Positions 4,656 through 20,559 are shown, numbered from the stretch's first letter. The stretch is DNA of 24,000 bases from Christensenellaceae bacterium (GCA_045613025.1 JAZLAE010000013.1:38486-62485), one strand, 5' to 3'. The notes: generated from the letters alone by a model not told the origin. Translations and numbers: made by a program.

Positions 4656-4736
4656 AGGTAGGTCTATCTCAGCCTGTGGTCTACACGAGCCTTTCCTAAC
4701 TTGTTTCTAACTCATTTCTTACAGAAACAAACTAAA
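4656..4736 (+). repeat. Structured intergenic repeat, copy D (partial or degenerate)
   Basis: Keeps the tail CGAGCCTTTCCTAACTTGTTTCTAACTCATTTCTTACAGAAACAAACT, but its hairpin is different and shorter (CAGG...CCTG). The terminal AGAAACAAACT matches the last codons of the 2..1597 gene. Confidence 0.55.
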
Positions 4737-4782
4737 AGATAAAGTATGTTTGTTTTTAAAACTTATTAGTTTGAAATTTCTA

Positions 4783-4895: not shown

Positions 4896-4945
4896 TTGCG
4901 CTAGCAAAACACCGTTTGGCGCTAGCCAACTTTGGCAAAGCCAAA
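4896..4945 (+). promoter_or_regulatory. Three tandem short palindromes or hairpins with shared TTGSC/GSCAA arms in the operon leader
   Basis: TTGC-GCTA-GCAA (4896-4907), TTGGC-GCTA-GCCAA (4916-4929), TTTGGC-AAA-GCCAAA (4931-4945). They end 20 nt before the ATG at 4965. Confidence 0.45.
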
Positions 4946-4964
4946 ATATCGTTTAATAATAGTT

Positions 4965-5627
4965 ATGATAAACTTTAAAAGAATTACAATCTTATCAGGG
5001 CATTATGGTAGCGGAAAAACTAACGTTGCCGTAAACCTTGCCTTAGATTTAAAAAAGGTATATAATAAAGTTGCTATAGCGGATATCGACATAGTTAACC
5101 CTTACTTTAGAACCAAAGATAGCGAAGAACTATTGCAGTCTTTAGGCATAAAACTTATTTGTTCAGAGTACGCTAACTCTAACGTAGATATTCCTGCGCT
5201 TCCGCAAGAAATGTATAGCGTAACCGATGATAAGTCCGTACACGCCATACTTGACGTAGGCGGTGATGAACGCGGTGCTTTAGCGCTTGGCAGGTTAGTG
5301 CCTAAAATTAAAGAAGAAAACGATTACGATATGTTCTACGTAATAAATAAGTTTAGGCCGTTAACCCGTGATATTCCGTCGGCTATAGAAGTTTTTGATG
5401 AAATCGAAAACGCGTGCAAACTTAAATTTACGGGAATAATAAATAACTCAAACTTAGGCAAAGAAACTACCCCTGAAGACGTAATATCTTCAGTAGAAAT
5501 TGCCGAAAACTTAGCAAAAACTTTAAACTTACCACTTATTTTCACTTCGGTTACCGAAGAGTTGTATGGCAAAGTAAAAGATAAAATTCAAAACGTGTAT
5601 CCACTTGTGATGCAAAAAAAATTATAA
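4965..5627 (+). CDS. P-loop NTPase (MinD/ParA/CooC-like superfamily), function unknown
   Basis: A Walker A motif lies near the N-terminus (ILSGHYGSGKTNVAVNLA), and a DVGGDE segment resembles Walker B/switch. ATG 4965 is preferred over the TTG at 4932 because it puts the P-loop at the usual distance from the N-terminus. No clear SD is visible. Confidence 0.7.
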   Translation: MINFKRITILSGHYGSGKTNVAVNLALDLKKVYNKVAIADIDIVNPYFRTKDSEELLQSLGIKLICSEYANSNVDIPALPQEMYSVTDDKSVHAILDVGGDERGALALGRLVPKIKEENDYDMFYVINKFRPLTRDIPSAIEVFDEIENACKLKFTGIINNSNLGKETTPEDVISSVEIAENLAKTLNLPLIFTSVTEELYGKVKDKIQNVYPLVMQKKL

Positions 5628-5639
5628 AGGAGTATAGTT

Positions 5640-5846
5640 ATGGCTGTATTAACTTTTAAAACTGATAAATGTAAAGGCTGTGGCTTGTGCGTTGGCGTTT
5701 GCCCTAAAAACGTACTTGCTCTTGCAACAGACAAAATTAACGCAAAAGGTCATCACCCTGTTGAAGCGGTTAACCCTGAAGCGTGCATCGGTTGTGCTTT
5801 CTGTGCAACAATGTGTCCTGATTGTATAATAAAGGTAGAAAGATAG
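5640..5846 (+). CDS. 2x[4Fe-4S] ferredoxin-type delta subunit of 2-oxoacid:ferredoxin oxidoreductase
   Basis: Two cluster motifs, CKGCGLCVGVCP and CIGCAFCATMCP. AAGGAG RBS. 68 aa. Confidence 0.85.
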   Translation: MAVLTFKTDKCKGCGLCVGVCPKNVLALATDKINAKGHHPVEAVNPEACIGCAFCATMCPDCIIKVER

Positions 5847-5858
5847 GAGTATAAAATT

Positions 5859-6920
5859 ATGGCAGATAAAGTTTTAATGAAAGGCAATGAAGCAATTGCA
5901 GAAGCGGCTATCATTGCAGGTTGTAGACATTATTTCGGCTATCCTATTACGCCACAAACAGAAATCGCGGCGTATATGGCTAAAAAGATGCCAAAAATCG
6001 GCGGTACTTTCTTACAAGCAGAAAGTGAAGTTGCCGCTATCAATATGGTATACGGTGTAGCGTCAACCGGTTATAGGGTTATGACGTCGTCTTCAAGCCC
6101 TGGTATTTCGTTAAAGGGCGAAGGCTTATCTTACTTAGCGGGTGCTGATTTACCAGCGCTTGTTGTTAACGTACAAAGGGGCGGTCCTGGTCTTGGTGGT
6201 ATTCAACCATCACAATCAGACTATTTCCAAGCAACTAAGGGTGGCGCACACGGTGACTTCCGTATGTTAGTTTTAGCCCCTGCATCAGTTCAAGAAATGG
6301 CAGAACTTACAGTTAAAGGTTTTGACCTTGCCGATAAATACCGTATGACTACTATGATTTTAGCCGACGGTACTATGGGTCAAATGATGGAACCAGTTTC
6401 TTTAGATTTCAAGGTAGAACCTCCTGTTGAAAAACCTTGGGCGGCTACTGGTACTAATATGCAACGTAAGCACAACGTAATCAACTCTCTTTACTTAAAG
6501 CCTGACCAACTTGAAAAAACTAACTTTGAAAGATTTGAACGTTACGAAATTATCAAAGAAAACGAAGTTATGTACGAAGAATACTTAATTGATGACGCTG
6601 AAATCTGCGTTGTTGCATTTGGTATTGCATCAAGGGTTGCTAAAAACGCTATTAACGAAGCAAGAAGCCAAGGCATTAAAGTTGGGTTAATTAGACCTAT
6701 CACACTTTGGCCTTTCCCTGAAAAAATCATTAACAAGGTTGCAGATAAAGTTAAATCGTTTATCTCTGTAGAACTTTCTATGGGTCAAATGATTGAAGAT
6801 ATCCGTTTAGCAGTAAACGGCAAAGCACCTGTTACTTTGTGTAACCGTTCGGGCGGTATGATACCTTCACCTGAACAAGTTTTAGAAGCAATCAAAAACG
6901 CTAACGGAGGTAAAAACTAA
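5859..6920 (+). CDS. 2-oxoacid:ferredoxin oxidoreductase alpha subunit (VorB/KorA-like)
   Basis: The N-terminus LMKGNEAIAEAAIIAGCRHYFGYPITPQTEI is typical of the alpha subunits of this family. The size is about 350 aa, and the gene lies in the order delta-alpha-beta-gamma. Confidence 0.85.
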   Translation: MADKVLMKGNEAIAEAAIIAGCRHYFGYPITPQTEIAAYMAKKMPKIGGTFLQAESEVAAINMVYGVASTGYRVMTSSSSPGISLKGEGLSYLAGADLPALVVNVQRGGPGLGGIQPSQSDYFQATKGGAHGDFRMLVLAPASVQEMAELTVKGFDLADKYRMTTMILADGTMGQMMEPVSLDFKVEPPVEKPWAATGTNMQRKHNVINSLYLKPDQLEKTNFERFERYEIIKENEVMYEEYLIDDAEICVVAFGIASRVAKNAINEARSQGIKVGLIRPITLWPFPEKIINKVADKVKSFISVELSMGQMIEDIRLAVNGKAPVTLCNRSGGMIPSPEQVLEAIKNANGGKN

Positions 6921-7660
6921 TGGTAGTATTCGATAAACCAAAGTCACTTGTTGACGTTCCTTTACATTATTGCCCAGGTTGTACACACGGTATCGTTCAC
7001 CGTTTAGTTGCCGAAGTTATCGACGAACTTGGTATCGAAGGTAAAACTATCGGTATTGCACCCGTTGGTTGTGCGGTTATGGCTTACGATTATTTCGCTT
7101 GCGATATGATTGAAGCAGCGCACGGTAGAGCGCCTGCTGTTGCTACTGGTGTTAAGCGCGCGTTACCTGATAACGTAGTATTCACTTACCAAGGCGACGG
7201 CGACTTAGCGTCAATCGGTATGTCTGAAACAGTTCACTCTGCTGCAAGAAACGAAAACATCACTATTATCTTTATCAACAACGCAATTTACGGTATGACT
7301 GGTGGTCAAATGGCACCTACTTCTCTTCCTGGTCAAGTAACTCAAACTTCACCTTATGGTAGAGATACTAACCTTTGCGGTTTCCCTATCAAAGTTTGCG
7401 AAATGCTTTCACAACTTGACGGCCCTGAATATCTTGAAAGGGTAGCGGTTAACAACGTTAAAAATATCAAAAACGCTAAAAAAGCAATCAAGAAAGCCTT
7501 CCAAAACCAAATTGATAAAAAAGGTTTCTCTCTTGTAGAAGTTGTTTCAAGTTGCCCAACTAACTGGGGCTTAACTCCTGAAAAAGCATTACAATGGATT
7601 GATGAAAAAATGATACCTTACTATCCTTTAGGCGTATACAAGGATAGGTCGGCGAAATAA
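6920..7660 (+). CDS. 2-oxoacid:ferredoxin oxidoreductase beta subunit (TPP-binding)
   Basis: TPP motif GDGDLASIGMSETVHSAARNENITIIFINNAIYGMTGGQ, and an N-terminal CPGC cluster ligand region. The start shares one nucleotide with the upstream stop (TAATG). Confidence 0.85.
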   Translation: MVVFDKPKSLVDVPLHYCPGCTHGIVHRLVAEVIDELGIEGKTIGIAPVGCAVMAYDYFACDMIEAAHGRAPAVATGVKRALPDNVVFTYQGDGDLASIGMSETVHSAARNENITIIFINNAIYGMTGGQMAPTSLPGQVTQTSPYGRDTNLCGFPIKVCEMLSQLDGPEYLERVAVNNVKNIKNAKKAIKKAFQNQIDKKGFSLVEVVSSCPTNWGLTPEKALQWIDEKMIPYYPLGVYKDRSAK

Positions 7661-7673
7661 GGGGGCAATTAAA

Positions 7674-8210
7674 ATGAACGAAAAATATTTATTTGCCGGT
7701 TTCGGCGGTCAAGGTATATTATTCTCTGGTAAAGTTTTAGCGTATAAAGGTCTTACTGATGGCAAAAACGTAAGTTGGCTTCCATCATACGGCCCTGAAA
7801 TGCGTGGTGGTACTGCAAGTTGTAGCGTTATCGTAAGTGATAACCCTATCGGTTCACCTATCGTTTCTAATCCTGAAATTTTAATAGCAATGAACCTTCC
7901 ATCTCTTGATTTATACGAAGATAGAGTAACAAGTGGCGGTATGATTTTCGTTGACTCATCACTTGTTGATAGAAAGGTTAATAGAACTGACGTAAAAGCA
8001 TTTTATATCCCTGCAACAAAACTTGCATCGGATAACGGAATTCCAACCCTTGCAAATATGATTATTATGGGTAAGGTTTTAGCGGAAACTAACGGCTTTA
8101 ACGATGAAAACGGCGTAAGAAACGCTTTAACTAAAGTTATTTCAGCAAAGCGTGCCGATATGTTAGAAGTTAACCTTAACGCTATGAAGTTGGGTAGAGA
8201 CTTCAAATAA
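7674..8210 (+). CDS. 2-oxoacid:ferredoxin oxidoreductase gamma subunit
   Basis: [17 protein letters not shown]...[18 protein letters not shown] is typical of gamma subunits. GGGGG-type RBS. Confidence 0.85.
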
Positions 8211-8241
8211 GATTACGCTTTTGATTTAAAGGAGAATTATT

Positions 8242-9306
8242 ATGGAAATTAAAATCACTAAAACTACAAGTCCTGCGGTTAAACCAGACAGTAGTATTTT
8301 AGGTTTCGGTAAATACTTTACCGACCATATGTTTATAATGGATTATTCGGCTGACAAAGGTTGGCACGATGCAAGAATAGTACCGTTTGGTAGAATTGAT
8401 ATTCACCCAGCATCAACAGTACTTCACTACGGCTCTGAAATCTTTGAAGGTTTAAAAGCATATAGAACAAAAGATGGTAGCGTACAACTTTTCCGTCCGC
8501 TTGAAAACATTAGAAGAATGAACCGCTCAGCAGAACGTATGTGTTTACCTGAAATCCCTGAAGATATGGCACTTGAAGCGTTAACTACCTTTATCAAAAT
8601 GGAACAAGACTGGGTTCCATCTGCACCAGGTACTTCACTTTATATCCGTCCGTTTATGTTCGGTAACGATGAAACTTTAGGTGTTCACGCCGTTAAAAAC
8701 GCTAAATTTGTTATTATAACTTCACCTGTTGGTAGTTATTATAAAGAAGGCATTAACCCTGTTAAAATTATGATTGAATCTGAAGACGTACGTGCCGTTC
8801 GCGGTGGTACGGGCGAAGCAAAATGCGGTGGTAACTACGCTGCAAGTAATAGGGCAGGCGAAAGGGCAGAAAAGAAAGGTTACTCTCAAGTATTATGGCT
8901 TGACGGTGTTGAAAGAAAATACATCGAAGAAGTTGGCGCAATGAACGTTATGTTCAAAATCGCAGGCGAAATCGTTACGCCTAAACTTGCAGGTTCAATT
9001 CTTCCAGGTATTACAAGAAAATCTATCCTTGAACTTTTACAAAAAGAAGGTTATAAGGTTTCTGAAAGACTTATCTCTGTTGATGAACTTGCCGAAGCAA
9101 TGAAAAACGGCACGCTTGAAGAAGCATGGGGTTGCGGTACTGCAGCCGTTGTTTCACCTATCGGTGAACTTTGCTATCAAGACGTTAAATACTCTATCAA
9201 CAACGGTAAAATCGGCGAAGTTACTCAACACTTATACGATACTTTAACAGGTATTCAATGGGGTAATAAGGAAGATGTATTTAATTGGGTTTACCCAATT
9301 AAATAA
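8242..9306 (+). CDS. ilvE: Branched-chain amino acid aminotransferase (fold type IV)
   Basis: About 354 aa, with family-typical segments YGSEIFEGLKAYR, LYIRPFMFG, EAKCGGNYAAS, GITRKSILEL, GTAAVVSPI. AAAGGAG RBS. Confidence 0.85.
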   Translation: MEIKITKTTSPAVKPDSSILGFGKYFTDHMFIMDYSADKGWHDARIVPFGRIDIHPASTVLHYGSEIFEGLKAYRTKDGSVQLFRPLENIRRMNRSAERMCLPEIPEDMALEALTTFIKMEQDWVPSAPGTSLYIRPFMFGNDETLGVHAVKNAKFVIITSPVGSYYKEGINPVKIMIESEDVRAVRGGTGEAKCGGNYAASNRAGERAEKKGYSQVLWLDGVERKYIEEVGAMNVMFKIAGEIVTPKLAGSILPGITRKSILELLQKEGYKVSERLISVDELAEAMKNGTLEEAWGCGTAAVVSPIGELCYQDVKYSINNGKIGEVTQHLYDTLTGIQWGNKEDVFNWVYPIK

Positions 9307-9440
9307 GCCGTTATTTGCTGCGTCTATCTGCGTTTCTGCAAAGTGGTTTTGATTTCAATGACCAACAAGGTCTATTTCATCCAAAACCATTTGCGAGCCT
9401 TGATATACTTGCAACTAACGCCTTATTACGTACTTAATTT
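9307..9440 (+). repeat. Structured intergenic repeat, copy E
   Basis: Starts right after the ilvE stop: CTGCGTTTCTG, outer stem GCAAA(G)TGGTTTT (9338-9350)/AAAACCATTTGC (9383-9394), GACC-AACAA-GGTC core, then CGAGCCTTG... The mid stem is partly decayed. Confidence 0.65.
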
Positions 9441-9521: not shown

Positions 9522-9552
9522 AAGGCAGGTTGTTTTAAGACCTGCCTTTTTC
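9522..9552 (+). terminator. Intrinsic terminator (second; related sequence)
   Basis: AAGGCAGGT-TGTTTTAAG-ACCTGCCTT followed by TTTTT. Confidence 0.8.
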
Positions 9553-9554: not shown

Positions 9555-9600
9555 GAGCCTTGCCTAACTTGTAACTAACGCCTTATTACGTAAATTTAAT
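9555..9600 (+). repeat. Structured-repeat tail fragment, copy F
   Basis: GAGCCTTGCCTAACTTGTAACTAACGCCTTATTACGTA duplicates 9395-9432. It has only the tail and no hairpin. Confidence 0.6.
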
Positions 9601-9616: not shown

Positions 9617-9653
9617 TAGCGTATCAGCATAACGTTGATACGCTATTATTTTT
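9617..9653 (+). terminator. Hairpin with U-rich tail (third terminator-like element)
   Basis: TAGCGTATCA (9617-9626), loop GCATAACGT, TGATACGCTA (9636-9645), then TTATTTTT. Confidence 0.6.
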
Positions 9654-9684: not shown

Positions 9685-9713
9685 TTGACAAAGTTATAAA
9701 ATAGTGTTAATAT
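9685..9713 (+). promoter_or_regulatory. Sigma-A type promoter with extended -10
   Basis: TTGACA (9685-9690), 17-nt spacer, TGt (9705-9707), TAATAT (9708-9713). Same architecture as the promoter at 1793. Confidence 0.7.
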
Positions 9714-9726
9714 ACTTAAAAATAAA

Positions 9727-9989
9727 CGCGATGAAGCGAAATAGTAAGTAAATTTTCTTGCTTTTAGAGAGATGCTGGTTGGTGCAAGGCGTTAGAAGAA
9801 TTTTACCGAACTCGTCGCAGAGCGGTTGCCGTGAAAGGTTAGTAGTGGCAAACGGGAACTCCCGTAAAAGAGTTAGGTGTGTTTGCACCAAAGTGCGCTT
9901 TCTTAAGCGAATAAGAGTGGTACCGCGGAAATAGTTTATCCTAAACGTTTTCGTCTCTTTAAGAAGTAAGGAGACAAAAGCGTTTTTTT
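9727..9989 (+). promoter_or_regulatory. T-box leader, specifier CUC (Leu)
   Basis: GA motif GCGAUGAAGCGAA (9728-9740); AG bay AGAGAG (9766-9771); distal loop GGUUGGUGCAA (9777-9787). The specifier loop 3' side is GAA-CUC-G (9808-9814), directly 5' of UCGC (9815-9818), which pairs with GCGA (9736-9739). The T-box sequence is AAUAAGAGUGGUACCGCGG (9911-9929), followed by a terminator. The UGGU bulge is compatible with A73 of tRNA-Leu. Confidence 0.88.
9946..9989 (+). terminator. Intrinsic terminator of the T-box 2 expression platform
   Basis: CGTTTTCGTCTC (9946-9957) pairs with GAGACAAAAGCG (9971-9982), followed by TTTTTTT (9983-9989). CGGAAA (9925-9930) can pair with TTTTCG (9948-9953) as the antiterminator. 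Confidence 0.8.
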
Positions 9990-10023
9990 ATTTCTATTAC
10001 CACAAAATTAAAGGAGATTTATT

Positions 10024-11409
10024 ATGAAAAAAATCGATATTATTGACGTTACGCTTAAAAAACTCTCAGAAGAACGCGAAGTTGCGCTTTTATTCCGTGA
10101 AAAATCTGCTATTGCTACAAAAGCCGATTTATTAGGTGCTGACGTTATTGAACTTCCTGCAGTTAAAAACTTCCGTGAAGATGCAATTATCTATAAAACT
10201 ATTTCTCAAAACGTTCAAAACGCTATTTTAACAATCCCTGTTGGCTTTGATAAAGAAAGCGTTGCTAACGCTTGGGAATGTGTTAAATTTGCTAAAAAAC
10301 CACGCTTACAAATCGAACTTCCAGTGTCTACTATTCAAATGGAATATACTTACCACGTTAAGCAAGAAAAAATGCTTGATAAAATTGTTGCGCTTATTAA
10401 AGAAGCAAAAAATTATTGTGAAGACGTAGAGTTTTCTGCGCTTGATGCAACAAGGGCTGACGTTAATTTCTTATTAACTGCAGTTAAAACTGCTGAAGAA
10501 AACGGCGCTACCGTTATTAACGTTTGTGATAACGCGGGCAACTCAACCCCTGAAGAAATCGCTTCGCTTGTTGAAAAAATTAAAGGCGTTGTTTCTATTC
10601 CACTTTACGTTCAAGTATCTAATCGCGTATTTATGGGCGTTGCTTCGGCTTTTTCTGCTATCACTAAAGGCGCAGACGGTTTAAAATGCGCTATTGATGG
10701 TAAAGACGTTCTTATTACTGGCGAAATTTGTGATGCCGTTTCAGTTTGCGGTGCAACTATCGGTGCAAAAATCAATCTTAACACTACTAAAATTCACGCA
10801 AGCATCGAAGATGTCCTTTCTAAAATCAATCATAAAGACTTATCCGCTACAAGCATAAGTGATAAAAACAAAATTTTACTTGACAGCGACGCTACTTTAA
10901 AAGACGTATTAACTTCTGCTACCGCACTTGGCTATGACCTTACTGAGTCTGATGCGGGTAAAGTATTTAATGCGCTTGTTAAGGTTTGTGAGAAAAAAGG
11001 TGCTATCGGTTCAAAGGAATTTGAAGCGCTTATTGCAAGTAACGCAATGCAAGCACCATCTACTTACCACTTTGAAACTTACACAACAACAAGCAGTAAC
11101 GTTTCAACTTCTATGTCGCAAGTAACTTTAAAAAGAAACGGAGAAATCATCTCTGGCGTTAGTTCGGGCGACGGTCCTATCGACTCTGTTTTCCGTGCTA
11201 TAGAACAATGTATCGGTCACCACTACGAACTTGATGATTACCAAGTTCAATCGGTAACCGAAGGTAAAGAAGCGTTAGGTTCAGCGCTTGTAAGACTTCG
11301 CAACAACGGCAAACTTTATTCTGGTAACGGTACTTCAACCGATATCGTTGGTGCAAGTATTAGGGCGTATATTAACGCGCTTAATAAAATCGTAGCCGAG
11401 GAGGCGTAA
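10024..11409 (+). CDS. LeuA/HMGL-like protein with degenerate catalytic motifs and an intact LeuA C-terminal regulatory (dimerisation) domain
   Basis: AAGGAGA RBS. The fold-level resemblance to 2-isopropylmalate synthase is clear: IDIIDVTL..., VEFSALDATR, INVCDNAGNSTPEE, KGADGLKCAIDG. The C-terminal part, GDGPIDSVFRAIEQ...YQVQSVTEGKEALGSALVRL...GNGTSTDIVGASIRAYINALNKI, is a typical LeuA_dimer domain. However, DTTLRDGEQ is replaced by DVTLKKLSE, the HxH metal site by QVS, and no HESGIHQDG-like motif is seen. Confidence 0.75.
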   Translation: MKKIDIIDVTLKKLSEEREVALLFREKSAIATKADLLGADVIELPAVKNFREDAIIYKTISQNVQNAILTIPVGFDKESVANAWECVKFAKKPRLQIELPVSTIQMEYTYHVKQEKMLDKIVALIKEAKNYCEDVEFSALDATRADVNFLLTAVKTAEENGATVINVCDNAGNSTPEEIASLVEKIKGVVSIPLYVQVSNRVFMGVASAFSAITKGADGLKCAIDGKDVLITGEICDAVSVCGATIGAKINLNTTKIHASIEDVLSKINHKDLSATSISDKNKILLDSDATLKDVLTSATALGYDLTESDAGKVFNALVKVCEKKGAIGSKEFEALIASNAMQAPSTYHFETYTTTSSNVSTSMSQVTLKRNGEIISGVSSGDGPIDSVFRAIEQCIGHHYELDDYQVQSVTEGKEALGSALVRLRNNGKLYSGNGTSTDIVGASIRAYINALNKIVAEEA

Positions 11410-11410
11410 T

Positions 11411-13873
11411 ATGAAAATAGTATTTTCAACCAAAAACGTAATAAGGGCGTCATTTTTAGATGCTTGTGCTTACGCTTACGATTACGGTTTTGAAGGCTTT
11501 GAAATATACGATGCGGTAAAAGAAAGAATCGACCATTACGACAGTATTTTAAGGCGTGATAAAGTTGCCGATAGCAAGCGAAAACTTGTAAACAGGGGTC
11601 TTTCTGTTTCGGCACTTCGTATGCCTGACGTTATCGAAAGTCAAAACGTTACTAAAGAATTAGTAGAAAAATACGTTGAAATGGCAAGTTTAGCGGGTGT
11701 TTCAAACGTTATCGTTAGCATAAATGATAAAGTTTCGTTTGATATTTTAAACGAAAAACTTACCCCTGCAGTAAAACTTGCTGAAAGGTTAGACGTAAAT
11801 ATCTTATTTGAAACTATAGGTTACCTTTCTAATACTGAAAACGTTATAGAAATTATCAACTATTTCTCATCGGCGGTAATAGGTGCTTCTTGGAACGTAA
11901 GGGGTACTTACTTCGGCGCAAAAGAATCGGCAGAGTCTACCATTAAAACGCTTGGCGCGTATATCAAATACGTGCGCCTTGGCGATATGAAAGGTGATAA
12001 AACCGTGCTTATCGGCGAAGGTGATTTAGACGTAGAAAAACTTTTAAACGCACTTTCTTCACTCAACTACGACGGCTTTATTTGTTGTGCTTGGAACGAA
12101 GAAATTAACGATGCCGATATAGTACTCACTCACTTTGCAAACTACGTTTCTTCGCTTAACCGCGATAAGAAAACTAATACCGAAAAATATTACAATAGGG
12201 ATAAATCGGGTTCTTTCGTATGGAAAAAATACGACGTTATCGATGCAACTTTCTCACAAGTTTTAGATACGATGGTAGAAAACTATCCCGACCAATACGC
12301 TTTTAAATACCCTACTTTAGACTATACGCGCACTTACGAACAATTCCGTCGCGACGTTGACGAATGCGCCGCAGCGCTTATTTCTCTTGGCGTAAAAGCG
12401 GGCGACCACGTTGCCGTTTGGGCAACTAACGTGCCTGAGTGGTTTATTACTTTCTGGGCAACTACTAAAATCGGTGCGGTACTTGTTACAGTTAACACGG
12501 CTTATAAAATTCACGAAATCGAATACTTACTTAAACAATCGGATACTCACACCCTTGTTATGATTGAGTATTGCAAAGATATCAACTATAAAGAAATTAT
12601 CGAAGAACTTTGCCCTGAACTTAAAACTTTGGAAGCGGGCAAACCTTTATATTCTAAATCGTTACCGTTCCTTAGAAACGTTGTAACCGTTGGCTTTAAT
12701 ATGGACGGCTGTTTAACTTGGGAACAAATGTTATCGCGTTCTTCACTTATTCCTATTGAAGAAGTAAGGCGTCGTGCATCACTTGTTAAACCGGACGACG
12801 TTTGCAATATGCAATACACTTCAGGTACAACGGGTTTCCCTAAAGGCGTTATGCTTACACACCGCAATATCGTAAACAACGGTAAAACTATCGGTGACAG
12901 AATGGATTTATCTACTGCCGACCGTATGATGATTCAAGTACCTATGTTCCACTGTTTTGGTATGGTGCTTTCAATGACTTCTATGATGACTCACGGTGGT
13001 ACGCTTTGTCCTATTCCGTACTTCTCACCAAAATCATCACTTGCTTGCGTAAACGATGAAAGAATCACTTGCTTTAACGGTGTTCCTACAATGTTTATTG
13101 CAATGTTCAACCACCCTGATTTTTCTAAAACTGACTTTAGTTATATGCGTACGGGTATTATGGCGGGTGCTAACTGTCCTGCCGACTTAATGCGCCGTGC
13201 ATCAGTTGAAATGAACATGCGCGAAATCATTTCAGTTTACGGTCAAACGGAAGCCGCACCTGGCTGTACAATGGGCGAAGTTAATGAAGACTTAGACCAT
13301 AGGGTAGAAACTGTAGGTAGTGCTTTCCCTGGTGTTGAATGTAAGATAATCGACCCTGAAACAGGTAAAGAACTCCCTGACGGCGAAAGCGGTGAATTCG
13401 TTGCGCGTGGCTTTAATATTATGAAAGGCTACTACAAAATGCCTGAAGCAACTGCACAAGCCATTGATAAAGACGGTTGGCTTCACTCTGGCGATATTTG
13501 TATGAGAACGCCTGACGGTTACTATAAAGTAACTGGTAGGCTTAAAGATATGATTATCCGTGGTGGCGAAAACCTTTATCCGCGTGAAATTGAAGAATTC
13601 TATTTAACTAACCCAAAAGTTAGGGATATTCAAGTAGTTGGCGTGCCTGATGAAAGATACGGCGAAGAATGTTGCGCTTGGATTATTCTTCATAAAGGCG
13701 AAACTGCCGATGAAAACGAAATGCGCGAATACGGTAACGCGTCTATTGCAAGGCATAAAGTTCCAAGATATTTCGTGTTCGTTAATGAATTCCCTATGAA
13801 CGCTGCGGGCAAAATTTTAAAATACAAAATGCGTGAAAGTTCTATTGAAATGTTAGGACTTAAAAAGGCTTAA
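11411..13873 (+). CDS. Fusion protein: xylose-isomerase-like (AP endonuclease 2 family) TIM barrel + FadD-type AMP-forming acyl-CoA ligase
   Basis: A GAGGAGG RBS lies inside the end of the upstream gene, and the ATG is 1 nt after its stop. The N-terminal ~250 aa has TIM-barrel family segments (GFEGFEIYD, LAGVSNVIV, LAERLDVNILFETIG, YIKYVRLGD). From about residue 270 it is a complete adenylate-forming ligase (MQYTSGTTGFPKGVMLTH, YGQTEA, GWLHSGDICMRTPDGYYKVTGRLKDMIIRGGENLYPREIEE, NAAGKILK). Confidence 0.8.
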   Translation: MKIVFSTKNVIRASFLDACAYAYDYGFEGFEIYDAVKERIDHYDSILRRDKVADSKRKLVNRGLSVSALRMPDVIESQNVTKELVEKYVEMASLAGVSNVIVSINDKVSFDILNEKLTPAVKLAERLDVNILFETIGYLSNTENVIEIINYFSSAVIGASWNVRGTYFGAKESAESTIKTLGAYIKYVRLGDMKGDKTVLIGEGDLDVEKLLNALSSLNYDGFICCAWNEEINDADIVLTHFANYVSSLNRDKKTNTEKYYNRDKSGSFVWKKYDVIDATFSQVLDTMVENYPDQYAFKYPTLDYTRTYEQFRRDVDECAAALISLGVKAGDHVAVWATNVPEWFITFWATTKIGAVLVTVNTAYKIHEIEYLLKQSDTHTLVMIEYCKDINYKEIIEELCPELKTLEAGKPLYSKSLPFLRNVVTVGFNMDGCLTWEQMLSRSSLIPIEEVRRRASLVKPDDVCNMQYTSGTTGFPKGVMLTHRNIVNNGKTIGDRMDLSTADRMMIQVPMFHCFGMVLSMTSMMTHGGTLCPIPYFSPKSSLACVNDERITCFNGVPTMFIAMFNHPDFSKTDFSYMRTGIMAGANCPADLMRRASVEMNMREIISVYGQTEAAPGCTMGEVNEDLDHRVETVGSAFPGVECKIIDPETGKELPDGESGEFVARGFNIMKGYYKMPEATAQAIDKDGWLHSGDICMRTPDGYYKVTGRLKDMIIRGGENLYPREIEEFYLTNPKVRDIQVVGVPDERYGEECCAWIILHKGETADENEMREYGNASIARHKVPRYFVFVNEFPMNAAGKILKYKMRESSIEMLGLKKA

Positions 13874-13881
13874 AGGTTAAA

Positions 13882-14041
13882 GGCTCTGTCACAATAAACG
13901 GTTAATAAATAGCAAATGAAATACTGCGTAATACGTTGTTAAAGCCCTTGAAAAGATGTATACTCTTATCTACGGGCTTTGCCTAGTCTTACTTGCATTT
14001 GCTTTGCTATTTTAAAATCAACCTAATATTGTGACATCGCC
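13882..14041. repeat. Nested long palindrome enclosing a diverged copy (G) of the intergenic repeat
   Basis: Outer arms GGCTCTGTCACAATA (13882-13896)/TATTGTGACATCGCC (14027-14041), with a perfect 10-bp core. Middle arms AGCAAATG (13911-13918)/CATTTGCT (13996-14003). Inner arms AAAGCCC (13941-13947)/GGGCTTT (13974-13980). AATACTGCGT and GGGCTTTGCCTAGTCTTACTTG resemble copy B/C flanks. Confidence 0.65.
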
Positions 14042-14055
14042 ATAGGAAAATTATT

Positions 14056-14862
14056 ATGATAAATGGAAAATACTACGCGATAGACGCGCATTGCCATATC
14101 TATCCCGAAAAAATCGCCAAACTTGCCGTTGACCATACAGATAATTTTTATAGCGAACACTCATATAACAAAGGCACGCTTGAAGATTTAATTTCGGCAA
14201 GTGATATCGCGGGTGTTGATAAATGTATTATTCAATCGGTGGCAACAACGCCTAAACAAGTTCAAAGCATAAACAAATTTATTAGCGATAGCGTGCAAGC
14301 GCACGGGGATAGATTTGTTGGCTTAGGCACTATCCATCCACGCTCTTTAGATATTGAAGGGGATATAGAACATTTAATAGAACTTGGCTTAAAGGGTATA
14401 AAAATCCACCCTGATATTCAAAACTTCAAGGTGGACGACGACGGCTATAAACAAGCGTATAAAATTTGCGAAAAGAAAGGCTTACCCGTTTTAATGCACA
14501 CGGGGGATAATAGATACGATAATTCTAATCCAAATAGAATTATACCTATATTAAATGAGTTTAAAAATTTAATGGTAGTAGGCGCACACTTTGGCGGTTG
14601 GTCTATTTGGGAAGAAGCAAGTGAAAAGTATAAAAACTACGATAACTTTTTCGTGGATACTTCTTCAAGTTTACACTACATCGATTTAGATACGGCTAAA
14701 ATGATAGTTGATAACTACGGCGTTGATAAACTTATGTTTGCAACAGATTACCCTATGTGGAACGCAAAAGACGAAATCGAAACCATTTTAAAACTTAACT
14801 TAACTGAAGACGATTACATTAAAATCTTTTCTAAAAACGCCGAAAAGGTGTACAAAATATAA
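14056..14862 (+). CDS. Amidohydrolase-2 family TIM-barrel metal-dependent hydrolase
   Basis: N-terminal HxH (IDAHCHIYPE), later His/Asp ligand candidates (KIHPD, LMHTGD, GAHFGG, FATDYP). AGGA RBS. 268 aa. Confidence 0.75.
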   Translation: MINGKYYAIDAHCHIYPEKIAKLAVDHTDNFYSEHSYNKGTLEDLISASDIAGVDKCIIQSVATTPKQVQSINKFISDSVQAHGDRFVGLGTIHPRSLDIEGDIEHLIELGLKGIKIHPDIQNFKVDDDGYKQAYKICEKKGLPVLMHTGDNRYDNSNPNRIIPILNEFKNLMVVGAHFGGWSIWEEASEKYKNYDNFFVDTSSSLHYIDLDTAKMIVDNYGVDKLMFATDYPMWNAKDEIETILKLNLTEDDYIKIFSKNAEKVYKI

Positions 14863-14863: not shown

Positions 14864-14895
14864 AAAAATGCTTGACAATCCGTCAAGCATTTTTT
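14864..14895. terminator. Bidirectional intrinsic terminator between convergent genes
   Basis: Perfect 13-bp arms AAAAATGCTTGAC/GTCAAGCATTTTT with the loop AATCC. This gives a U-tract on both strands. It sits between the stops at 14862 (+) and 14897 (-). Confidence 0.85.
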
Positions 14896-14896: not shown

Positions 14897-16084
14897 TTAG
14901 ATTAAGTTAAATTCTTTAGCAAGTAACAAAAACGCGTCTTTGCTATTTACCGCAGTTTTTTTATCAACGCAAGTAGCAAGCCTTAAATATCCTTTTACGC
15001 CAAAACTATCTGACGGAACTAATAAAAGCCCGTATTTTTTAGCGTGGTTGCTAAATTCAACCGCGTCTGAAATAGGCGATTTAATAAATAAATAGAACGC
15101 GCCTTTAGGGTTAACACAAATAAAGTTAAGGTCTGTTAGCGTTTTAATTAAAATATCGCGGTTATCTTTATAAGGGTTAGGGTTAGAAACCTTATCCGCG
15201 TGTTTAGCAAGCACCTTTTGGAAAAGTGATGGCGCACACACGTAACCAAGCGCTCTACCCGCGCCCATAACGGTAATGTAAAGGTCGCTTGCATTTTCGC
15301 ATTTAGGCGAAACGGCAATATAACCTATTCTTTCACCAGGGAGAGATAACGCTTTACTGTACGAATAGCAAATAATAGTGTTATTATAAAAACTTGGAAT
15401 ATACGGACAAGTTGCACCGTCAAATAAAATTTCCCTATAAGGTTCATCGGCTATAATATATATAGGATAGCCGTATTCCTTTTGCTTATCGTCAAGAATT
15501 TTAGAAATAGCCTTGATAGTTTCTTCATCGTAAACAGTACCCGCTGGGTTATTAGGGCTATTTATTATAACACCCCTTGTTTTATTCGTGATAGATTTTT
15601 CAAATTCTTCTAAATTGATAGAAAAGTTAACTTCATCGCAAGTAACGTATTTAAACACCCCGCCCGACGTTTCAGTAAACACCCTATATTCAGGGAAGAA
15701 AGGTGCTACCCCCAAAATTTCTTCATCGGCTTCAGATAAAATTGAAGATAAAACTATCTTTAACGCGGCAGCAGCACCGCAAGTCATATAAATTAAGTTT
15801 TCGTTTAAACTAAAGCCGTATTTTTGCTTGTTGTAATCGGCTATTGCCTTTCTTGTTTGTAAATCGCCATTAGCCGAAGTATAAGCGTGTGCAGACGGGT
15901 CGTTAGCGATAAGCCACGTTGCATATTCATCAACTTCCTTAGGGCAAGGAACGCTTGGGTTGCCAATGGTGAAATCGTAAACTTTATCTTCGCCGATTTC
16001 TTGCTTTAATTGTTTGCCGTATTCAAATAATTCACGGATAACAGAGCGTTGCGCACCAAGACCGTACATTTTTTTATTTAACAT
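14897..16084 (-). CDS. Class I/II PLP-dependent aminotransferase (Asp/aromatic/Ala aminotransferase-like)
   Basis: 395 aa. Motifs NPSVP, INSPNNPAGTVY and YSYSKALSLPGERIGY (PLP lysine context). AGGAGAC RBS on the minus strand. Confidence 0.8.
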   Translation of the reverse strand: MLNKKMYGLGAQRSVIRELFEYGKQLKQEIGEDKVYDFTIGNPSVPCPKEVDEYATWLIANDPSAHAYTSANGDLQTRKAIADYNKQKYGFSLNENLIYMTCGAAAALKIVLSSILSEADEEILGVAPFFPEYRVFTETSGGVFKYVTCDEVNFSINLEEFEKSITNKTRGVIINSPNNPAGTVYDEETIKAISKILDDKQKEYGYPIYIIADEPYREILFDGATCPYIPSFYNNTIICYSYSKALSLPGERIGYIAVSPKCENASDLYITVMGAGRALGYVCAPSLFQKVLAKHADKVSNPNPYKDNRDILIKTLTDLNFICVNPKGAFYLFIKSPISDAVEFSNHAKKYGLLLVPSDSFGVKGYLRLATCVDKKTAVNSKDAFLLLAKEFNLI

Positions 16085-16439: not shown

Positions 16440-17456
16440 ATGATTATAGTAGTTAAACAACAACACGAAGAGAAACAACTTGATAATTTAATCAAATGGA
16501 TTAAAAACTTGGGTTTAGAGGTCGATTTAAGCCGTGGTTCGCACTCAACCATATTAGGTTTAATTGGCGATACAAGTAAGGTGGATATCGACCTTATCCG
16601 TTCGCTTGATATCGTTGAAAACGTTAAGCGTATTCAAGAACCCTTTAAATGTGCTAATCGTAAATTCCATCCAGACGATACTATCGTGGAAGTTGGCGAC
16701 GCTAAGTTTGGTGGAGACAATTTCTCTATCATAGCAGGGCCTTGTTCGATTGAAACTGAAAGCCAAATCATAGAAGTTGCTTGGGCTGTAAAAAATGCAG
16801 GCGCTAAAGTGCTTCGCGGTGGCGCGTTTAAACCAAGAACTTCGCCGTACTCTTTCCAAGGTTTAAAAAGTAAGGGTTTAGACCTTTTACTTAAAGCCAA
16901 ACAAGAAACGGGTATGCCTATCGTTACCGAAATTATGAGTTCATCTCACCTTGATTTGTTTAGTGACGTTGATATCATCCAAATCGGCGCAAGAAATATG
17001 CAAAACTTCGAACTTTTAAAAGAAGTAGGCAAAACTAAAAAACCTGTTCTTTTAAAACGTGGTCTTTGCAGTACTATTGAAGAATGGCTTATGAGTGCCG
17101 AATACTTAATGAGCGAAGGTACTAAAGATATTATCTTATGCGAACGCGGTATTCGTACTTTTGAAACGTATACAAGAAACACTTTAGATTTATCCGCTAT
17201 CCCGCTTATAAAAGAGTTAACGCATTTACCCGTTGTAGTAGACCCGTCGCACGCGTCTGGTCTTTCAAGGCTTGTAAAACCGTTATCGCTTGCATCGGTT
17301 GGCTCTGGTGCAGACGGACTTATGATAGAAGTGCACAACAATCCGCAATGCGCACTTTGTGACGGCGCGCAATCACTTAAACCCGATGAGTTTAGCGACG
17401 TGGTTAAAAAAGTTAACGTGATGTTGCCACTTTGCAACAAGAAAGAGATATTATGA
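16440..17456 (+). CDS. aroF: 3-deoxy-7-phosphoheptulonate (DAHP) synthase, type I-beta, with an N-terminal ferredoxin-like regulatory domain
   Basis: 338 aa. About 75 N-terminal residues (IIVVKQQHEE...LGLIGDTS...) precede the catalytic barrel (IIAGPCSIE, LRGGAFKPRTSPYSFQG, KRG, VDPSH). AAGGAGA RBS. Confidence 0.88.
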   Translation: MIIVVKQQHEEKQLDNLIKWIKNLGLEVDLSRGSHSTILGLIGDTSKVDIDLIRSLDIVENVKRIQEPFKCANRKFHPDDTIVEVGDAKFGGDNFSIIAGPCSIETESQIIEVAWAVKNAGAKVLRGGAFKPRTSPYSFQGLKSKGLDLLLKAKQETGMPIVTEIMSSSHLDLFSDVDIIQIGARNMQNFELLKEVGKTKKPVLLKRGLCSTIEEWLMSAEYLMSEGTKDIILCERGIRTFETYTRNTLDLSAIPLIKELTHLPVVVDPSHASGLSRLVKPLSLASVGSGADGLMIEVHNNPQCALCDGAQSLKPDEFSDVVKKVNVMLPLCNKKEIL

Positions 17457-18310
17457 ATATAGGTTTAATAGGTCTTGGACTTATCGGTGGTTCTTTTGGT
17501 AGAACTTTAATTAAAAAAACAAACCATAAAATTTACGGTTACGACATAAGTGAAACAGTTATGTTAAAGGCGGAAATGCTTAACGCTTTTAACGAAAAAT
17601 TAACGATTGATAACGCTAAAGATTTAGATATGCTTATTATTTCCGTTTACCCTGATTATTTTGAAGACGCGGTAAAAAAATTCTTACCACATCTTAAAAA
17701 AGGGACTATCGTTACCGATTTTTCGGGCGTGAAAGGAATTATTATTGATAAGATGAAAAATTATCAAAAACAGTTCCCTGACCTAATTTTTATAGGTGGT
17801 CACCCTATGGCGGGTAGGGAATTTTCGGGTATAGAACACTCTATAACCACGTTATTTGATAAAGCGTTTATGATTTTAGTTCCGATAAACGCGGATATCT
17901 TTACCCTTAGCGAAATCAAAAATTTCTATAAGGAACTTGGCTTTTTAGACGTAGTTATAACTACCGCTGAAAATCACGATGAAATGATAGCGTACACTTC
18001 GCAACTTTGCCATATAGTATCAAACGCCTTTATAAAAAACGAAACGGCAGAAAAACACCTTGGCTATTCTGCAGGAAGTTATAAAGACTTAACAAGGGTT
18101 GCAAGGCTTAATAGTGAAATGTGGTCTGGGCTTATGATGGCAAATAAGGCTAAACTTAAAAAAGAACTTGATGAGTTTATTTTAAACTTGCAAAAATATT
18201 CAACCGCCCTTGAAAATGGCAGTAGGGAAGAATTAGAACTTTTGCTTAAAGAAGGCAATGATAGAAAACTTTCAATCGACGTAAGGAGTAGTAAAAACAA
18301 TGGAAATTAA
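17453..18310 (+). CDS. tyrA: Prephenate dehydrogenase
   Basis: MNIGLIGLGLIGGSFG Rossmann motif at the N-terminus, and GGHPMAG. ATG 17453 overlaps the aroF stop (ATGA). The TTG at 17432 in the ORF track is rejected. Confidence 0.85.
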   Translation: MNIGLIGLGLIGGSFGRTLIKKTNHKIYGYDISETVMLKAEMLNAFNEKLTIDNAKDLDMLIISVYPDYFEDAVKKFLPHLKKGTIVTDFSGVKGIIIDKMKNYQKQFPDLIFIGGHPMAGREFSGIEHSITTLFDKAFMILVPINADIFTLSEIKNFYKELGFLDVVITTAENHDEMIAYTSQLCHIVSNAFIKNETAEKHLGYSAGSYKDLTRVARLNSEMWSGLMMANKAKLKKELDEFILNLQKYSTALENGSREELELLLKEGNDRKLSIDVRSSKNNGN

Positions 18311-19316
18311 AGTTAGCGCGTCAAAAGATTATTCAGTTATAATCAATGATAATTTAACTAAATTAAAATCTTACGCACAAAAGGTAATTAACGGTGATAA
18401 ACTTGCTATAATTACCGATAAAACGGTAGGCGAACTTTACGCTTTAAAAGTAAAGGAAATATTTAGCGATTATTCCGTTTACGTGTATACGATTGACGGC
18501 GGTGAAGACGGTAAAAGTTTACAAAACTATTTTGAACTTTTACAGTTTTTAGCGGATAACGGGTTTAAGCGTAACGATACCGTTGTTGCTTTAGGCGGTG
18601 GCGTTATAGGTGACTTAGCGGGATTTACCGCTTCAACTTATATGCGCGGTATCAATTTAATAATGATACCAACCACTCTTCTTAGTATGGTTGATTCTTC
18701 GGTTGGTGGCAAAACCGCCGTTAACTTGCCAAACGGCAAAAATTTAGTAGGCAGTTTTTATCAACCGTCGCTTGTATACGTTTCTACTGAATTTTTAAAC
18801 ACCTTGTCAAGCCGTGAAATTTTAAGTGGTATGGGCGAAATTATTAAATATTCGTTTATCGGTAGTGGGCTTACCCTTAACGATATAAAAGACGGCGTAA
18901 ATGCAAGTTTAATTTATAAATGTATAGATATTAAGCGCCAAATTGTTGAAAACGATGAAAAAGAAAGTGGAGAGCGTAAACTTTTAAACTTAGGCCACAC
19001 CGTTGGTCACGCAATTGAAAAAATAGAAAATTATAACCTTTCGCACGGGGAGTGCGTTTTAAAAGGGCTTTACTATTCGCTTGAAATATCTAAAAAATTA
19101 GGGGTGTTAAATAATACTAATTATTTAAAAAGCCTTGAAATTATTACGGCAAGCGGTTATAATAGTTTTAATTTATATAAAAAGCAAGAACTTATTAAAT
19201 ACATTACCCTTGACAAAAAGGGAATTAAAGATAGCGTTGACTTTATCGTTATAGACGATACCTTAAAAGCCAAAGTAAAAAGAATTAATATAGATAACTT
19301 AACGGAATTACTTTAA
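18300..19316 (+). CDS. aroB: 3-dehydroquinate synthase
   Basis: GGGVIGDLAGFTASTYMRGI, VDSSVGGKTAVN, LNLGHTVGHAIE. It overlaps the tyrA end by 11 nt. Confidence 0.9.
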   Translation: MEIKVSASKDYSVIINDNLTKLKSYAQKVINGDKLAIITDKTVGELYALKVKEIFSDYSVYVYTIDGGEDGKSLQNYFELLQFLADNGFKRNDTVVALGGGVIGDLAGFTASTYMRGINLIMIPTTLLSMVDSSVGGKTAVNLPNGKNLVGSFYQPSLVYVSTEFLNTLSSREILSGMGEIIKYSFIGSGLTLNDIKDGVNASLIYKCIDIKRQIVENDEKESGERKLLNLGHTVGHAIEKIENYNLSHGECVLKGLYYSLEISKKLGVLNNTNYLKSLEIITASGYNSFNLYKKQELIKYITLDKKGIKDSVDFIVIDDTLKAKVKRINIDNLTELL

Positions 19317-19317
19317 A

Positions 19318-20559
19318 ATGGATATTAAAATTACACCTTCAAACGTTAGCGGAGTGGTGTGTGCACCGCCCTCTAAATCATACGCGCACAGATATATAAT
19401 TGCATCGTTTTTATCTAAAACGGCGGGTTTTATATCTAACGTAGAGCCGTCAAACGACGTGCTTGCTACTTTAAACGCGCTTAAAAATTTAGGGCTTAAC
19501 TATTCGTTTGAAAGGGGTGGTTTATCTTTAAGTTATGTTGTAGCCTTAAAAAACCCGATTATTGATTGCAATGAAAGCGGTTCAACTTTAAGGTTTTTAA
19601 TACCTATCGTATCAGCACTTGGCGTTTTAAGTGAATTCACTGGTAGTAAAAGGCTTTTAGAAAGACCTATTAAAGATTTAACCGACTGTTTAAATAATAA
19701 CGGGGCGGAAATTAGCGGGCTTAAGTTAAACGGCAAACTAAAAAGCGGAAAGTTTAAAATAAACGGTGGCGTTAGTTCACAGTTTATTACAGGTTTACTT
19801 TTTGCTTTGCCACTTTTAAACGGGGATAGCGTTATTGAAATAATAGGCGAAACGGTTAGCCAAAACTATATTGATATTACCCTTGACGTGTTAAACGATT
19901 TTGGCGTAGTAATAGCAAAAACGGATAACGGCTACTTCGTTAAAGGAAATCAAACGTACAAAATGCCAAGTCAAATGGCGGTAGAAGGTGATTACTCTAA
20001 CTCAGCATTCTTACTTGCTTTAGGCGTTTTAGGTAGTGGTGTTACCGTTTTAAATTTAAATAAAAATTCTAAGCAAGGCGATAGAAAGATAATTGATATT
20101 TTGAAAGACTTTGGTGGAATTATAACCGAAGTAGATAACGGCTATTTTGCTAAAAAAGGTCAACTTAAAGGTACTGTGGTTGATTGTGAAGATATACCCG
20201 ATATAGTTCAAATTTTATCGGTTGTGGCTTCTTATTCTAATGGCGTAAGCCTATTTAAAAATGTAAACCGCCTTGAAATTAAAGAGAGTAACCGCGTTTT
20301 AGGTATTGTAAACAATCTTAAAAATGCGGGCATTAAAGCCGAATATAACGGCAAAGACTTAACCATTTACGGCGGAACGGTAAAAAACGGCACGTTTAAT
20401 GGCGATAACGACCATAGAACTGTAATGGCTATGGCGGTGTTGTCGGCGTTTAATAATGGCGAAAGCACTATTAAAGGCGTTGAAGCGGTAAACAAATCAT
20501 ACCCAACGTTCTTTAAAGATTTTAGTAATTTAGGGGGAGTAACAAATGGCGATATTTAA
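19318..20559 (+). CDS. aroA: 3-phosphoshikimate 1-carboxyvinyltransferase (EPSP synthase)
   Basis: 413 aa. PPSKSYAHRYII, ESGSTLRFL, LERPI, DHRTVMAMAV. Confidence 0.9.
   Translation: MDIKITPSNVSGVVCAPPSKSYAHRYIIASFLSKTAGFISNVEPSNDVLATLNALKNLGLNYSFERGGLSLSYVVALKNPIIDCNESGSTLRFLIPIVSALGVLSEFTGSKRLLERPIKDLTDCLNNNGAEISGLKLNGKLKSGKFKINGGVSSQFITGLLFALPLLNGDSVIEIIGETVSQNYIDITLDVLNDFGVVIAKTDNGYFVKGNQTYKMPSQMAVEGDYSNSAFLLALGVLGSGVTVLNLNKNSKQGDRKIIDILKDFGGIITEVDNGYFAKKGQLKGTVVDCEDIPDIVQILSVVASYSNGVSLFKNVNRLEIKESNRVLGIVNNLKNAGIKAEYNGKDLTIYGGTVKNGTFNGDNDHRTVMAMAVLSAFNNGESTIKGVEAVNKSYPTFFKDFSNLGGVTNGDI

Follow-up and report, generated by a model that had tools for sequence, protein, structure and literature searches.

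The window analyzed here is a stretch of 24,000 nucleotides (nt) from a Christensenellaceae bacterium (GCA_045613025.1 JAZLAE010000013.1:38486-62485), and its subject is an operon that begins with a leucine-specific T-box leader. The leader precedes two coupled genes, the first for a LeuA paralog without catalytic motifs, here called pLeuA, and the second for a fusion of a triosephosphate isomerase (TIM) barrel to an AMP-forming acyl-CoA ligase (TIM::ligase). It is about an even bet that this pair forms the leucine arm of a regulon in which scavenged short-chain acids with a branched skeleton are turned into branched-chain amino acids, and that the ligase is an isovalerate--CoA ligase gated by pLeuA. 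Branched-chain volatile fatty acids are required or used by many anaerobes of the rumen and gut. The physiology of the reductive carboxylation route to valine, isoleucine and leucine has been known for decades, but there is little certainty about which enzymes perform the activation and how they are controlled.

A leucine T-box in front of a coupled gene pair

Two Rfam-grade T-box leaders were detected in the window by an Rfam scan. The leader of pLeuA (Table 1) matches RF00230 over the whole model (positions 1-219), for which the gathering score is 93 bits. Its specifier, read from the sequence, is the leucine codon CUC at 9811-9813 in the context GAA-CUC-G, in agreement with the rule of a codon followed by a purine, and the T-box sequence AGUGGUACCGCG is found at 9916-9927. 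The 5' arm of the downstream terminator hairpin (dG -18.7 kcal/mol, z = -3.83) shares nucleotides with the 3' end of the RF00230 match, as expected if terminator and antiterminator compete. The ribosome-binding site of the fusion gene, GAGGAGG, sits within the pLeuA gene, and a single nucleotide separates the TAA stop codon of pLeuA from the ATG of the fusion. The original prediction had described this gap and the internal ribosome-binding site, together with a promoter, the T-box with its GAA-CUC-G loop, a palindromic spacer, the genes and a bidirectional terminator, and all of these elements were found where it had placed them.

A scan of one genome per species revealed at least 596 genomes that encode a pLeuA relative, from which the best 80 loci were retrieved. 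All 80 belong to metagenome-assembled genomes from gut or rumen, mostly of Clostridia (Christensenellaceae, Acutalibacteraceae, Oscillospiraceae, Ruminococcaceae and Eubacteriales, besides one Lachnospiraceae and one Spirochaetales). In the first set of loci, searched by tblastn with the window proteins, pLeuA is directly followed by TIM::ligase in 84 of 84 cases, and the stop-to-ATG gap is 1 nt in 61 of them. Altogether the pair was kept in 88 of the 89 loci examined, including L084-L086 at 40-41% identity and L088 at 28%, and such a recurrence argues that the arrangement is not due to chance.

In 75 loci, pLeuA is preceded by a T-box. The specifier of 73 leaders is CUC in 71, CUG in one and CCC in one, and cmscan/Rfam alignments bear out the assignment for two T-box subtypes. 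At 40-41% identity, CUC is present in L085 and CUG in L084 and L086 (sub-threshold T-boxes); no T-box was detected in L088. At the sequence level, these leaders demonstrate that the pair belongs to a T-box regulon and that its control is specific for leucine. The core of what had been predicted, an undescribed system under the control of a Leu T-box, is borne out by the conservation of the pair and of the specifier. A synteny check of the three predicted genes and the leader upheld the pair and the Leu T-box and failed for the third gene, which encodes an amidohydrolase.

Two loci deserve separate mention. In the TIM::ligase gene of L088 (2968-4533, GC 34%), TGA occurs in frame seven times, each time at a conserved Trp position, so that its source reads TGA as Trp in a code 4-like manner. 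In L018, a lysine riboswitch (10798-10969) and a dapA-like gene lie directly 3' of the pair, which illustrates its setting among riboswitch-controlled amino-acid genes.

pLeuA has lost the catalytic residues of LeuA

In pLeuA, a degenerate HMGL-like barrel (Pfam, 1.5e-30) and accessory subdomains are joined to a LeuA_dimer regulatory domain of high conservation (PF08502, 7.7e-32, profile positions 4-130 of 131). The NCBIfam models for isopropylmalate, citramalate and homocitrate synthases all match it at less than half of their cut-offs; with the LeuA models TIGR00973 and NF002086 it reaches 258.9 and 234.5 bits, respectively, where 532 and 598.7 bits are required. In an alignment with the isopropylmalate synthase (IPMS) of Neisseria (3rmj), DTTLRDGEQ is replaced by DVTLKKLSE and HCHNDLG by VQVSNRVFMG. 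The window protein carries the latter motif and IIDVTLKKLSEE, and neither the divalent-metal ligands nor the 2-oxoacid-binding Arg is kept.

When 1.84 billion cluster representatives were searched exhaustively with HMMER, a family of about 105 full-length clusters at 50% identity emerged, with lengths of 453-497 aa and identities of 33-51%. Real LeuAs rank below these clusters in the same search, the first at about 200 bits. In a joint alignment, the RDGEQ/Asp and His-x-His metal ligands are kept by the real LeuAs and occur in 0 of the approximately 105 pLeuA clusters, and a comparison of consensus sequences found no counterpart in pLeuA of the EAGFP, PDTVG and GERAGNA motifs or of GKHSGRHA in the accessory subdomain. 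Since the residues for metal binding, substrate binding and catalysis have all been lost, pLeuA is, to judge by its residues, catalytically dead, and the prediction of a LeuA-like protein without catalytic motifs is confirmed by these losses and by the low model scores. The best-conserved part of the protein is the regulatory domain (GDGPIDAAF ... VTEG.EA.G ... GK.YSG.G.STDII.ASI.AY.NALNKI), whose motifs GDGPIDA, VTEG and STDII.ASI.AY.NALNK are common to pLeuA and real LeuA. In public annotation, pLeuA proteins appear as 'hypothetical', '2-isopropylmalate synthase' or 'alpha-isopropylmalate synthase regulatory domain-containing protein'.

The loss of all catalytic motifs would also suit a functionless, decaying leuA remnant that lies beside an unrelated ligase. 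This explanation is effectively refuted by conservation: open reading frames of intact length persist across the whole family and in all of the species-level genomes counted above, and the regulatory domain, the 1-nt coupling and the T-box are all conserved.

A precedent for a role without catalysis is offered by the HisZ-HisG system, in which HisZ, a dead paralog of HisRS, is the histidine-responsive regulatory subunit of the short-form ATP phosphoribosyltransferase. By analogy, pLeuA is proposed to be an allosteric leucine-sensor subunit of the ligase. Indirect hints in this direction come from its strict adjacency to the ligase gene, from the 1-nt coupling and from the conservation of its regulatory domain. 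The regulatory domain of IPMS hosts the leucine site and works across a domain-swapped dimer (PMC9860122).

In the representative library, LeuA_dimer was also encountered in fusion with partial MFS, TGT, receiver, 7TMR-HDED or MBOAT domains (proteins P0359, P0367, P0370, P0374 and P0375). These fusions were judged to be probable chimeric contigs and were not used, although real domain shuffling could still be behind them.

A highly conserved acyl-CoA ligase

The translated ligase domain displays intact ANL core motifs (YTSGTTGFPKG, YGQTE, TGRLKD and AAGK, the last including the C-terminal catalytic Lys). Its closest NCBIfam model by far is PRK12583 (NF009233) with 670.7 bits, followed by a model with 418.9 bits; no close solved structure was found for it. 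The median identity of the ligase to its window counterpart is 92.8%, compared to 69.8% for pLeuA, 72.1% for the TIM domain, 78% for VorA and 75% for VorB, and ligase identity exceeds pLeuA identity in 65 of 65 loci. Where pLeuA has dropped to 41%, the ligase is still 68-72% identical, and where the ligase is at this level the TIM domain has fallen to 29-30%. Across the genomes that give the median of 92.8%, the pLeuA, TIM, Vor and IlvE proteins are 60-78% identical. With intact core motifs and a sequence under extreme purifying selection, the ligase looks active. A guess at the reason for this extreme conservation is that contacts within a complex cover a large part of the ligase surface.

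Isovalerate is proposed as the substrate on the basis of three features, namely the Leu T-box, the linkage of the pair to the 2-oxoacid:ferredoxin oxidoreductase (VOR) and IlvE genes, and the valine and isoleucine T-boxes on paralogous ligases that resemble MbcS. Across the loci, MbcS-like genes are preceded by T-boxes with the specifier AUC (Ile) in 31 cases, GUA (Val) in 18 and a Leu codon in none. Purified MbcS from Staphylococcus aureus activates isobutyrate and 2-methylbutyrate, and isovalerate is a very poor substrate (PMC10026030). A separate ligase for isovalerate is therefore to be expected in a regulon whose MbcS-like ligases are assigned to valine and isoleucine. The two MbcS-like ligases of the window match NF047394 with 441-443 bits, below the cut-off of this model. 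Both carry an N-terminally fused XRE helix-turn-helix (HTH) and cupin domain, as was also seen in L001, L019, L084 and other loci, and the gene at 2114-4402 has a GUA T-box. A DNA-binding and cupin sensor module on a riboswitch-controlled ligase is an unusual combination.

A proposed route from isovalerate to leucine

In the window, as in many other loci, vor and ilvE are neighbours of the pair, and in L085 the gene order is T-box(CUC), pLeuA, TIM::ACS, IlvE and a PFOR-type oxidoreductase of 1175 aa. The link that the original prediction drew to the neighbouring VOR and IlvE genes is thus supported by recurrence as well as by gene order. In rumen microbes, leucine is known to arise from isovalerate by carboxylation and subsequent amination (PMC7356843). 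The assignment of the pair to this pathway is well supported by its context.

The system most likely works as follows. Uncharged tRNA-Leu would pair with the CUC specifier and stabilise the antiterminator, and transcription would pass the terminator at 9943-9992. The core transcript would carry the translationally coupled genes of pLeuA and TIM::ligase. The ligase would convert isovalerate, ATP and CoA to isovaleryl-CoA, VorDBAC would reductively carboxylate isovaleryl-CoA to 4-methyl-2-oxopentanoate, and IlvE would transaminate the latter to leucine. A pLeuA dimer would bind the ligase and pass on the leucine occupancy of its regulatory domain, so that leucine, acting through pLeuA, might inhibit the ligase quickly by feedback, in addition to the slower response of the T-box, in the way that HisZ acts on HisG. 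The substrate isovalerate, the complex of pLeuA and ligase, the binding of leucine and the inhibitory sign of its effect are what we infer from this combination of genes and leader.

A different use of isovaleryl-CoA has to be considered, in which it would mainly prime iso-odd branched-chain membrane fatty acids and thereby spare scarce leucine, with no part in amino-acid synthesis. The activation of exogenous branched acids by MbcS serves lipid synthesis in S. aureus (PMC10026030), and control by leucine starvation would also suit primer supply, since leucine is the normal source of isovaleryl-CoA. Against this stand the repeated linkage of the pair to IlvE and 2-oxoacid:ferredoxin oxidoreductases, which in L085 also lie directly 3' of it, and the control of all three branched-chain ligases by the charging of the cognate tRNA, a signal tied to protein synthesis. 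Moreover, the loci inspected showed no genes for fatty-acid synthesis. A primary role in lipid synthesis is therefore improbable.

The TIM barrel and the amidohydrolase

The N-terminal domain of the fusion is a xylose-isomerase-like barrel, for which an AlphaFold2 (AF2) model with a predicted local distance difference test score (pLDDT) of 90.9 was obtained. The best Foldseek match of this model is UlaE (3cqj; template-modelling (TM) score 0.77, 16% identity), and TM scores to UlaE and ketose 3-epimerases range from 0.70 to 0.78. Of the canonical ligands Glu-Asp-His-Glu, the clade of the window has retained the first Glu alone (FET / WNVRG / VRLGD / AWNEE), and a function as sugar isomerase or epimerase by the canonical mechanism was ruled out for this clade on account of the lost metal ligands. 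The pocket residues E31, E134, N162, R164, R189, D192 and N229 are invariant within the clade. In L084-L086, which form a distant clade, the ligand motifs read WD.HH, HVH..D and.EW at the places where the window clade has N, R and R. One of the two clades may possess an active barrel, and the other a pseudoenzyme. Because the ligands vary between clades and the TIM domain diverges fastest, the canonical chemistry of the barrel is not a requirement conserved throughout the module.

The amidohydrolase gene encodes a clear member of PF04909 (6.7e-31, 108.6 bits against a gathering score of 26.4) without a match to any NCBIfam family, whose nearest structure in the PDB is the uncharacterised BB4693 (3irs, 9.2e-16). 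It lies directly 3' of the fusion in 24 of the 60 loci with room for it, whereas L020 and L023 have it upstream of the T-box, and its product is the fastest-diverging protein of the set, with a median identity of 52%. On these three grounds it was rejected as a core member, and the amidohydrolase is an accessory member of the operon. The gene trio of the original prediction is accordingly reduced to a pair. A further suggestion, that the substrate is a conjugated or modified precursor, found no support; three of the four canonical metal ligands are missing from the barrel of the window clade.

The behaviour of these two proteins bears on a rival explanation in which a leucine precursor is indeed made and pLeuA is not regulatory. 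pLeuA could instead be a subunit for substrate binding or channelling, which might for instance deliver isovaleryl-CoA or the 2-oxoacid to VOR, or a neo-functionalised enzyme that has acquired another active site, and the TIM barrel or the amidohydrolase might act on a precursor other than free isovalerate. The barrel of pLeuA is under purifying selection and contains the conserved blocks PRL..PVS.VQMEY, DATRAE and CD.AG; yet the metal, 2-oxoacid and catalytic residues known from DRE-TIM metallolyases are all gone from it, and it is the regulatory domain, not the barrel, that is best conserved. Likewise, the TIM pocket is invariant within its clade and the distant clade retains canonical metal ligands, whereas the domain as a whole diverges fastest and its ligands vary across the family. 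The amidohydrolase shares the operon in 40% of the loci, with gaps of 6-40 nt, and is dispensable in the other 60%. We consider a non-regulatory pLeuA unlikely, though less so than the lipid-primer role discussed above.

Observations that weigh against a pLeuA-gated isovalerate ligase

Several observations speak against the proposal of an isovalerate ligase gated by a leucine-sensing pLeuA. The ligase score lies below the PRK12583 cut-off of 832 bits, PRK12583 is itself a model without a defined substrate, and isovalerate was assigned from context alone. The AF2 model of pLeuA, computed from a shallow alignment, has a pLDDT of 69.5, which drops below 50 in the regulatory domain. A phmmer search of the PDB with this domain alone returned nothing relevant, and the family profile matches MtuIPMS and the LiCMS regulatory domain only marginally (E about 3e-4 to 8e-4). 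The proposal assigns no role to the TIM barrel and the optional amidohydrolase; as the barrel of the distant clade keeps the canonical metal ligands (ETVG / WDMHY / HVHIKD / LEWD in L085), the pathway may include an extra catalytic step.

Two loci also depart from the general pattern. The leader of L066 (2586-2832) has CCC at the specifier position (GAA-CCC-A), for which an error in sequencing, decay of the leader or a change of specificity may be responsible. The sole exception to the pairing is a pLeuA-like gene in L087 (1287-2693, 33% identity) with no ligase beside it. This gene adjoins a tRNA gene, a RhuM-family gene and an HTH gene, surroundings that resemble a mobile element, and L087 may sit at a mobile-element junction.

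Novelty and significance

In full-text searches of the literature, neither the pair nor acyl-CoA ligases under T-box control nor a LeuA pseudoenzyme turned up, and none of the curated NCBIfam models claims pLeuA or the fusion protein. Acyl-CoA ligases are not mentioned in the T-box survey of Wels et al. (2008; PMC2494555). The route and the type of riboswitch are known, but there seems to be no earlier account of the partner derived from LeuA, of the ligase in its fused form or of branched-acid ligases labelled by three kinds of T-box.

In its most far-reaching form, the proposal holds that pLeuA is the first case of a LeuA leucine-sensing module split from catalysis, a stand-alone pseudoenzyme subunit that gates an isovalerate--CoA ligase, and that together with the HTH-cupin::ligases for valine and isoleucine it supplies the long-missing gene set and a two-tier control of the branched-acid route. 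We offer this wider claim tentatively and with more doubt than confidence. Hundreds of uncultured species from gut and rumen, most of them Clostridia, carry this gene set. The T-box specifiers GUA, AUC and CUC serve as built-in labels that tie three ligases to three amino acids across at least 596 species-level genomes, and predictions of auxotrophy and cross-feeding in microbiome models would improve. pLeuA represents a large, previously unnamed family of dead LeuA paralogs and a clean test case for pseudoenzyme feedback control, and a ligase with about 93% identity among neighbours with about 70% is worth a structural study.

Other features of the window

The features of the window are compiled in Table 1. 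In addition to the window, a P-loop NTPase gene was noted in front of vorD-vorBAC in L084 (15483-16172) and L086 (14077-14778); it always holds this place, and its product may be a dedicated factor for Fe-S maturation or assembly of the oxidoreductase.

The spacer between the fusion and the amidohydrolase gene folds as a single long hairpin (dG -49.1 kcal/mol, z = -4.84) with an inverted repeat at 13882-13906 and 14017-14041. It contains no terminator-like site and has no Rfam match, and was therefore rejected as a terminator or riboswitch. Its sequence is partly common to the CGAGCCTTGCCTAACTTG intergenic repeat family found elsewhere in the window, and it is probably an inserted copy of such a repeat. 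In most relatives the gap before the amidohydrolase gene measures 6-40 nt, so that the palindromic spacer, which had been predicted as part of the operon, is not the usual arrangement. The repeat family (1614-1726, 4433-4738, 9347-9432, 9555-9592 and 13874-14055) has copies after several operons and is composed of two parts, a hairpin unit (TTTTGAC..GATGACCAACAAGGTC..) and then CGAGCCTTGCCTAACTTG.

The aromatic amino-acid operon comprises genes for a DAHP synthase with an N-terminal FXD domain and a prephenate dehydrogenase, aroB, aroA and aroC, and further a gene for a chorismate mutase::prephenate dehydratase and an aroE::aroK fusion. With this full set, the organism makes aromatic amino acids de novo.

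Table 1. Coordinates of the features identified in the window (numbered from its first nucleotide)
Feature	Position	Strand	Remarks
Other HTH-cupin::MbcS-like ligase	2-1597		tandem with the 2114-4402 gene; cut by window edge
T-box with GUA (Val) specifier	1828-2069	+	valine branch
HTH-cupin::MbcS-like acyl-CoA synthetase	ATG about 2114 to 4402	+	3' of GUA T-box
P-loop NTPase	4932-5627	+	MinD/ParA/Mrp-like, weak CbiA/ParA matches
VorD ferredoxin	5640-5846	+	vor-ilvE operon (4932..9306)
VorB	5859-6920	+	NF005507, 547.7 bits, cut-off 399
VorA	6920-7660	+	vor-ilvE operon
VorC	7674-8210	+	vor-ilvE operon
IlvE	8242-9306	+	NF009897, 492.5 bits, cut-off 307
Two terminators	9522-9548 and 9617-9645		end the upstream vor-ilvE operon and set the promoter at 9685-9713 apart from it
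Sigma-70-type promoter	9685..9713	+	TTGACA-17-TAATAT, extended TG; 10/12 matches
T-box leader	9722..9961	+	Rfam RF00230, 134.9 bits, E = 3e-30
Intrinsic terminator of T-box	9943..9992	+	18-pair hairpin 9943-9985, then U-run
pLeuA, LeuA-like open reading frame, 461 aa	10024..11409	+	HMGL-like and LeuA_dimer domains
TIM::ligase fusion open reading frame, 820 aa	11411-13873	+	AP_endonuc_2, AMP-binding, AMP-binding_C
Xylose-isomerase-like TIM barrel, about aa 1-250	11411..12160	+	Pfam PF01261, 50.8 bits, gathering score 31.1
AMP-forming acyl-CoA ligase domain, about aa 277-820	12239..13873	+	PF00501 5.2e-95, PF13193 1.9e-15
Hairpin-forming spacer, 182 nt	13874..14055	+	precedes amidohydrolase gene
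Amidohydro_2 gene, 268 aa	14056..14862	+	PF04909
Bidirectional terminator	14864..14894	.	14-pair stem, T-runs on both sides; common to the convergent aminotransferase gene
Convergent PRK06836-type aminotransferase	14897-16084	-	profile matches
Aromatic amino-acid operon	16440-23969		after PRK06836-type aminotransferase; profile matches

Comparison with known systems

In concept, the proposed role of pLeuA resembles that of HisZ, as in both cases an inactive paralog from the metabolism of the same amino acid would be reused as the sensor of a non-homologous enzyme, one that channels carbon or ATP into this amino acid. pLeuA differs in that it has no sequence relationship to HisZ. With LeuA/IPMS it has in common the DRE-TIM-type barrel, the accessory subdomains and the C-terminal LeuA_dimer domain. 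It is distinguished from these enzymes by its length of 461 aa compared to 500-516 aa, by the absence of the metal ligands, RDGEQ, GERAGNA and GKHSGRHA, and by its partner, which is a ligase and not leuBCD.

The ligase of the leucine branch is AMP-forming, as is MbcS, and like MbcS would activate exogenous branched short-chain acids; MbcS-like genes are present in the same clusters. It falls, however, into another ANL subfamily, closest to PRK12583, and has a TIM barrel at its N-terminus and pLeuA as its partner, whereas S. aureus MbcS serves lipids and has no known T-box control. The chemistry proposed here, from isovalerate via isovaleryl-CoA and 4-methyl-2-oxopentanoate to leucine, is the same as that of the reductive carboxylation route of the rumen, which likewise uses a 2-oxoacid:ferredoxin oxidoreductase and a transaminase. 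The literature search brought up no paper that identifies the activating ligases of this route, places them under T-box control or gives them a partner derived from LeuA. Finally, the leader belongs to the same riboswitch family as the Leu T-boxes of Bacillus subtilis leuS and ilv-leu and shares with them the CUC specifier and the terminator/antiterminator logic, but the genes it controls are not those of an aminoacyl-tRNA synthetase, a canonical biosynthesis operon or a transporter.

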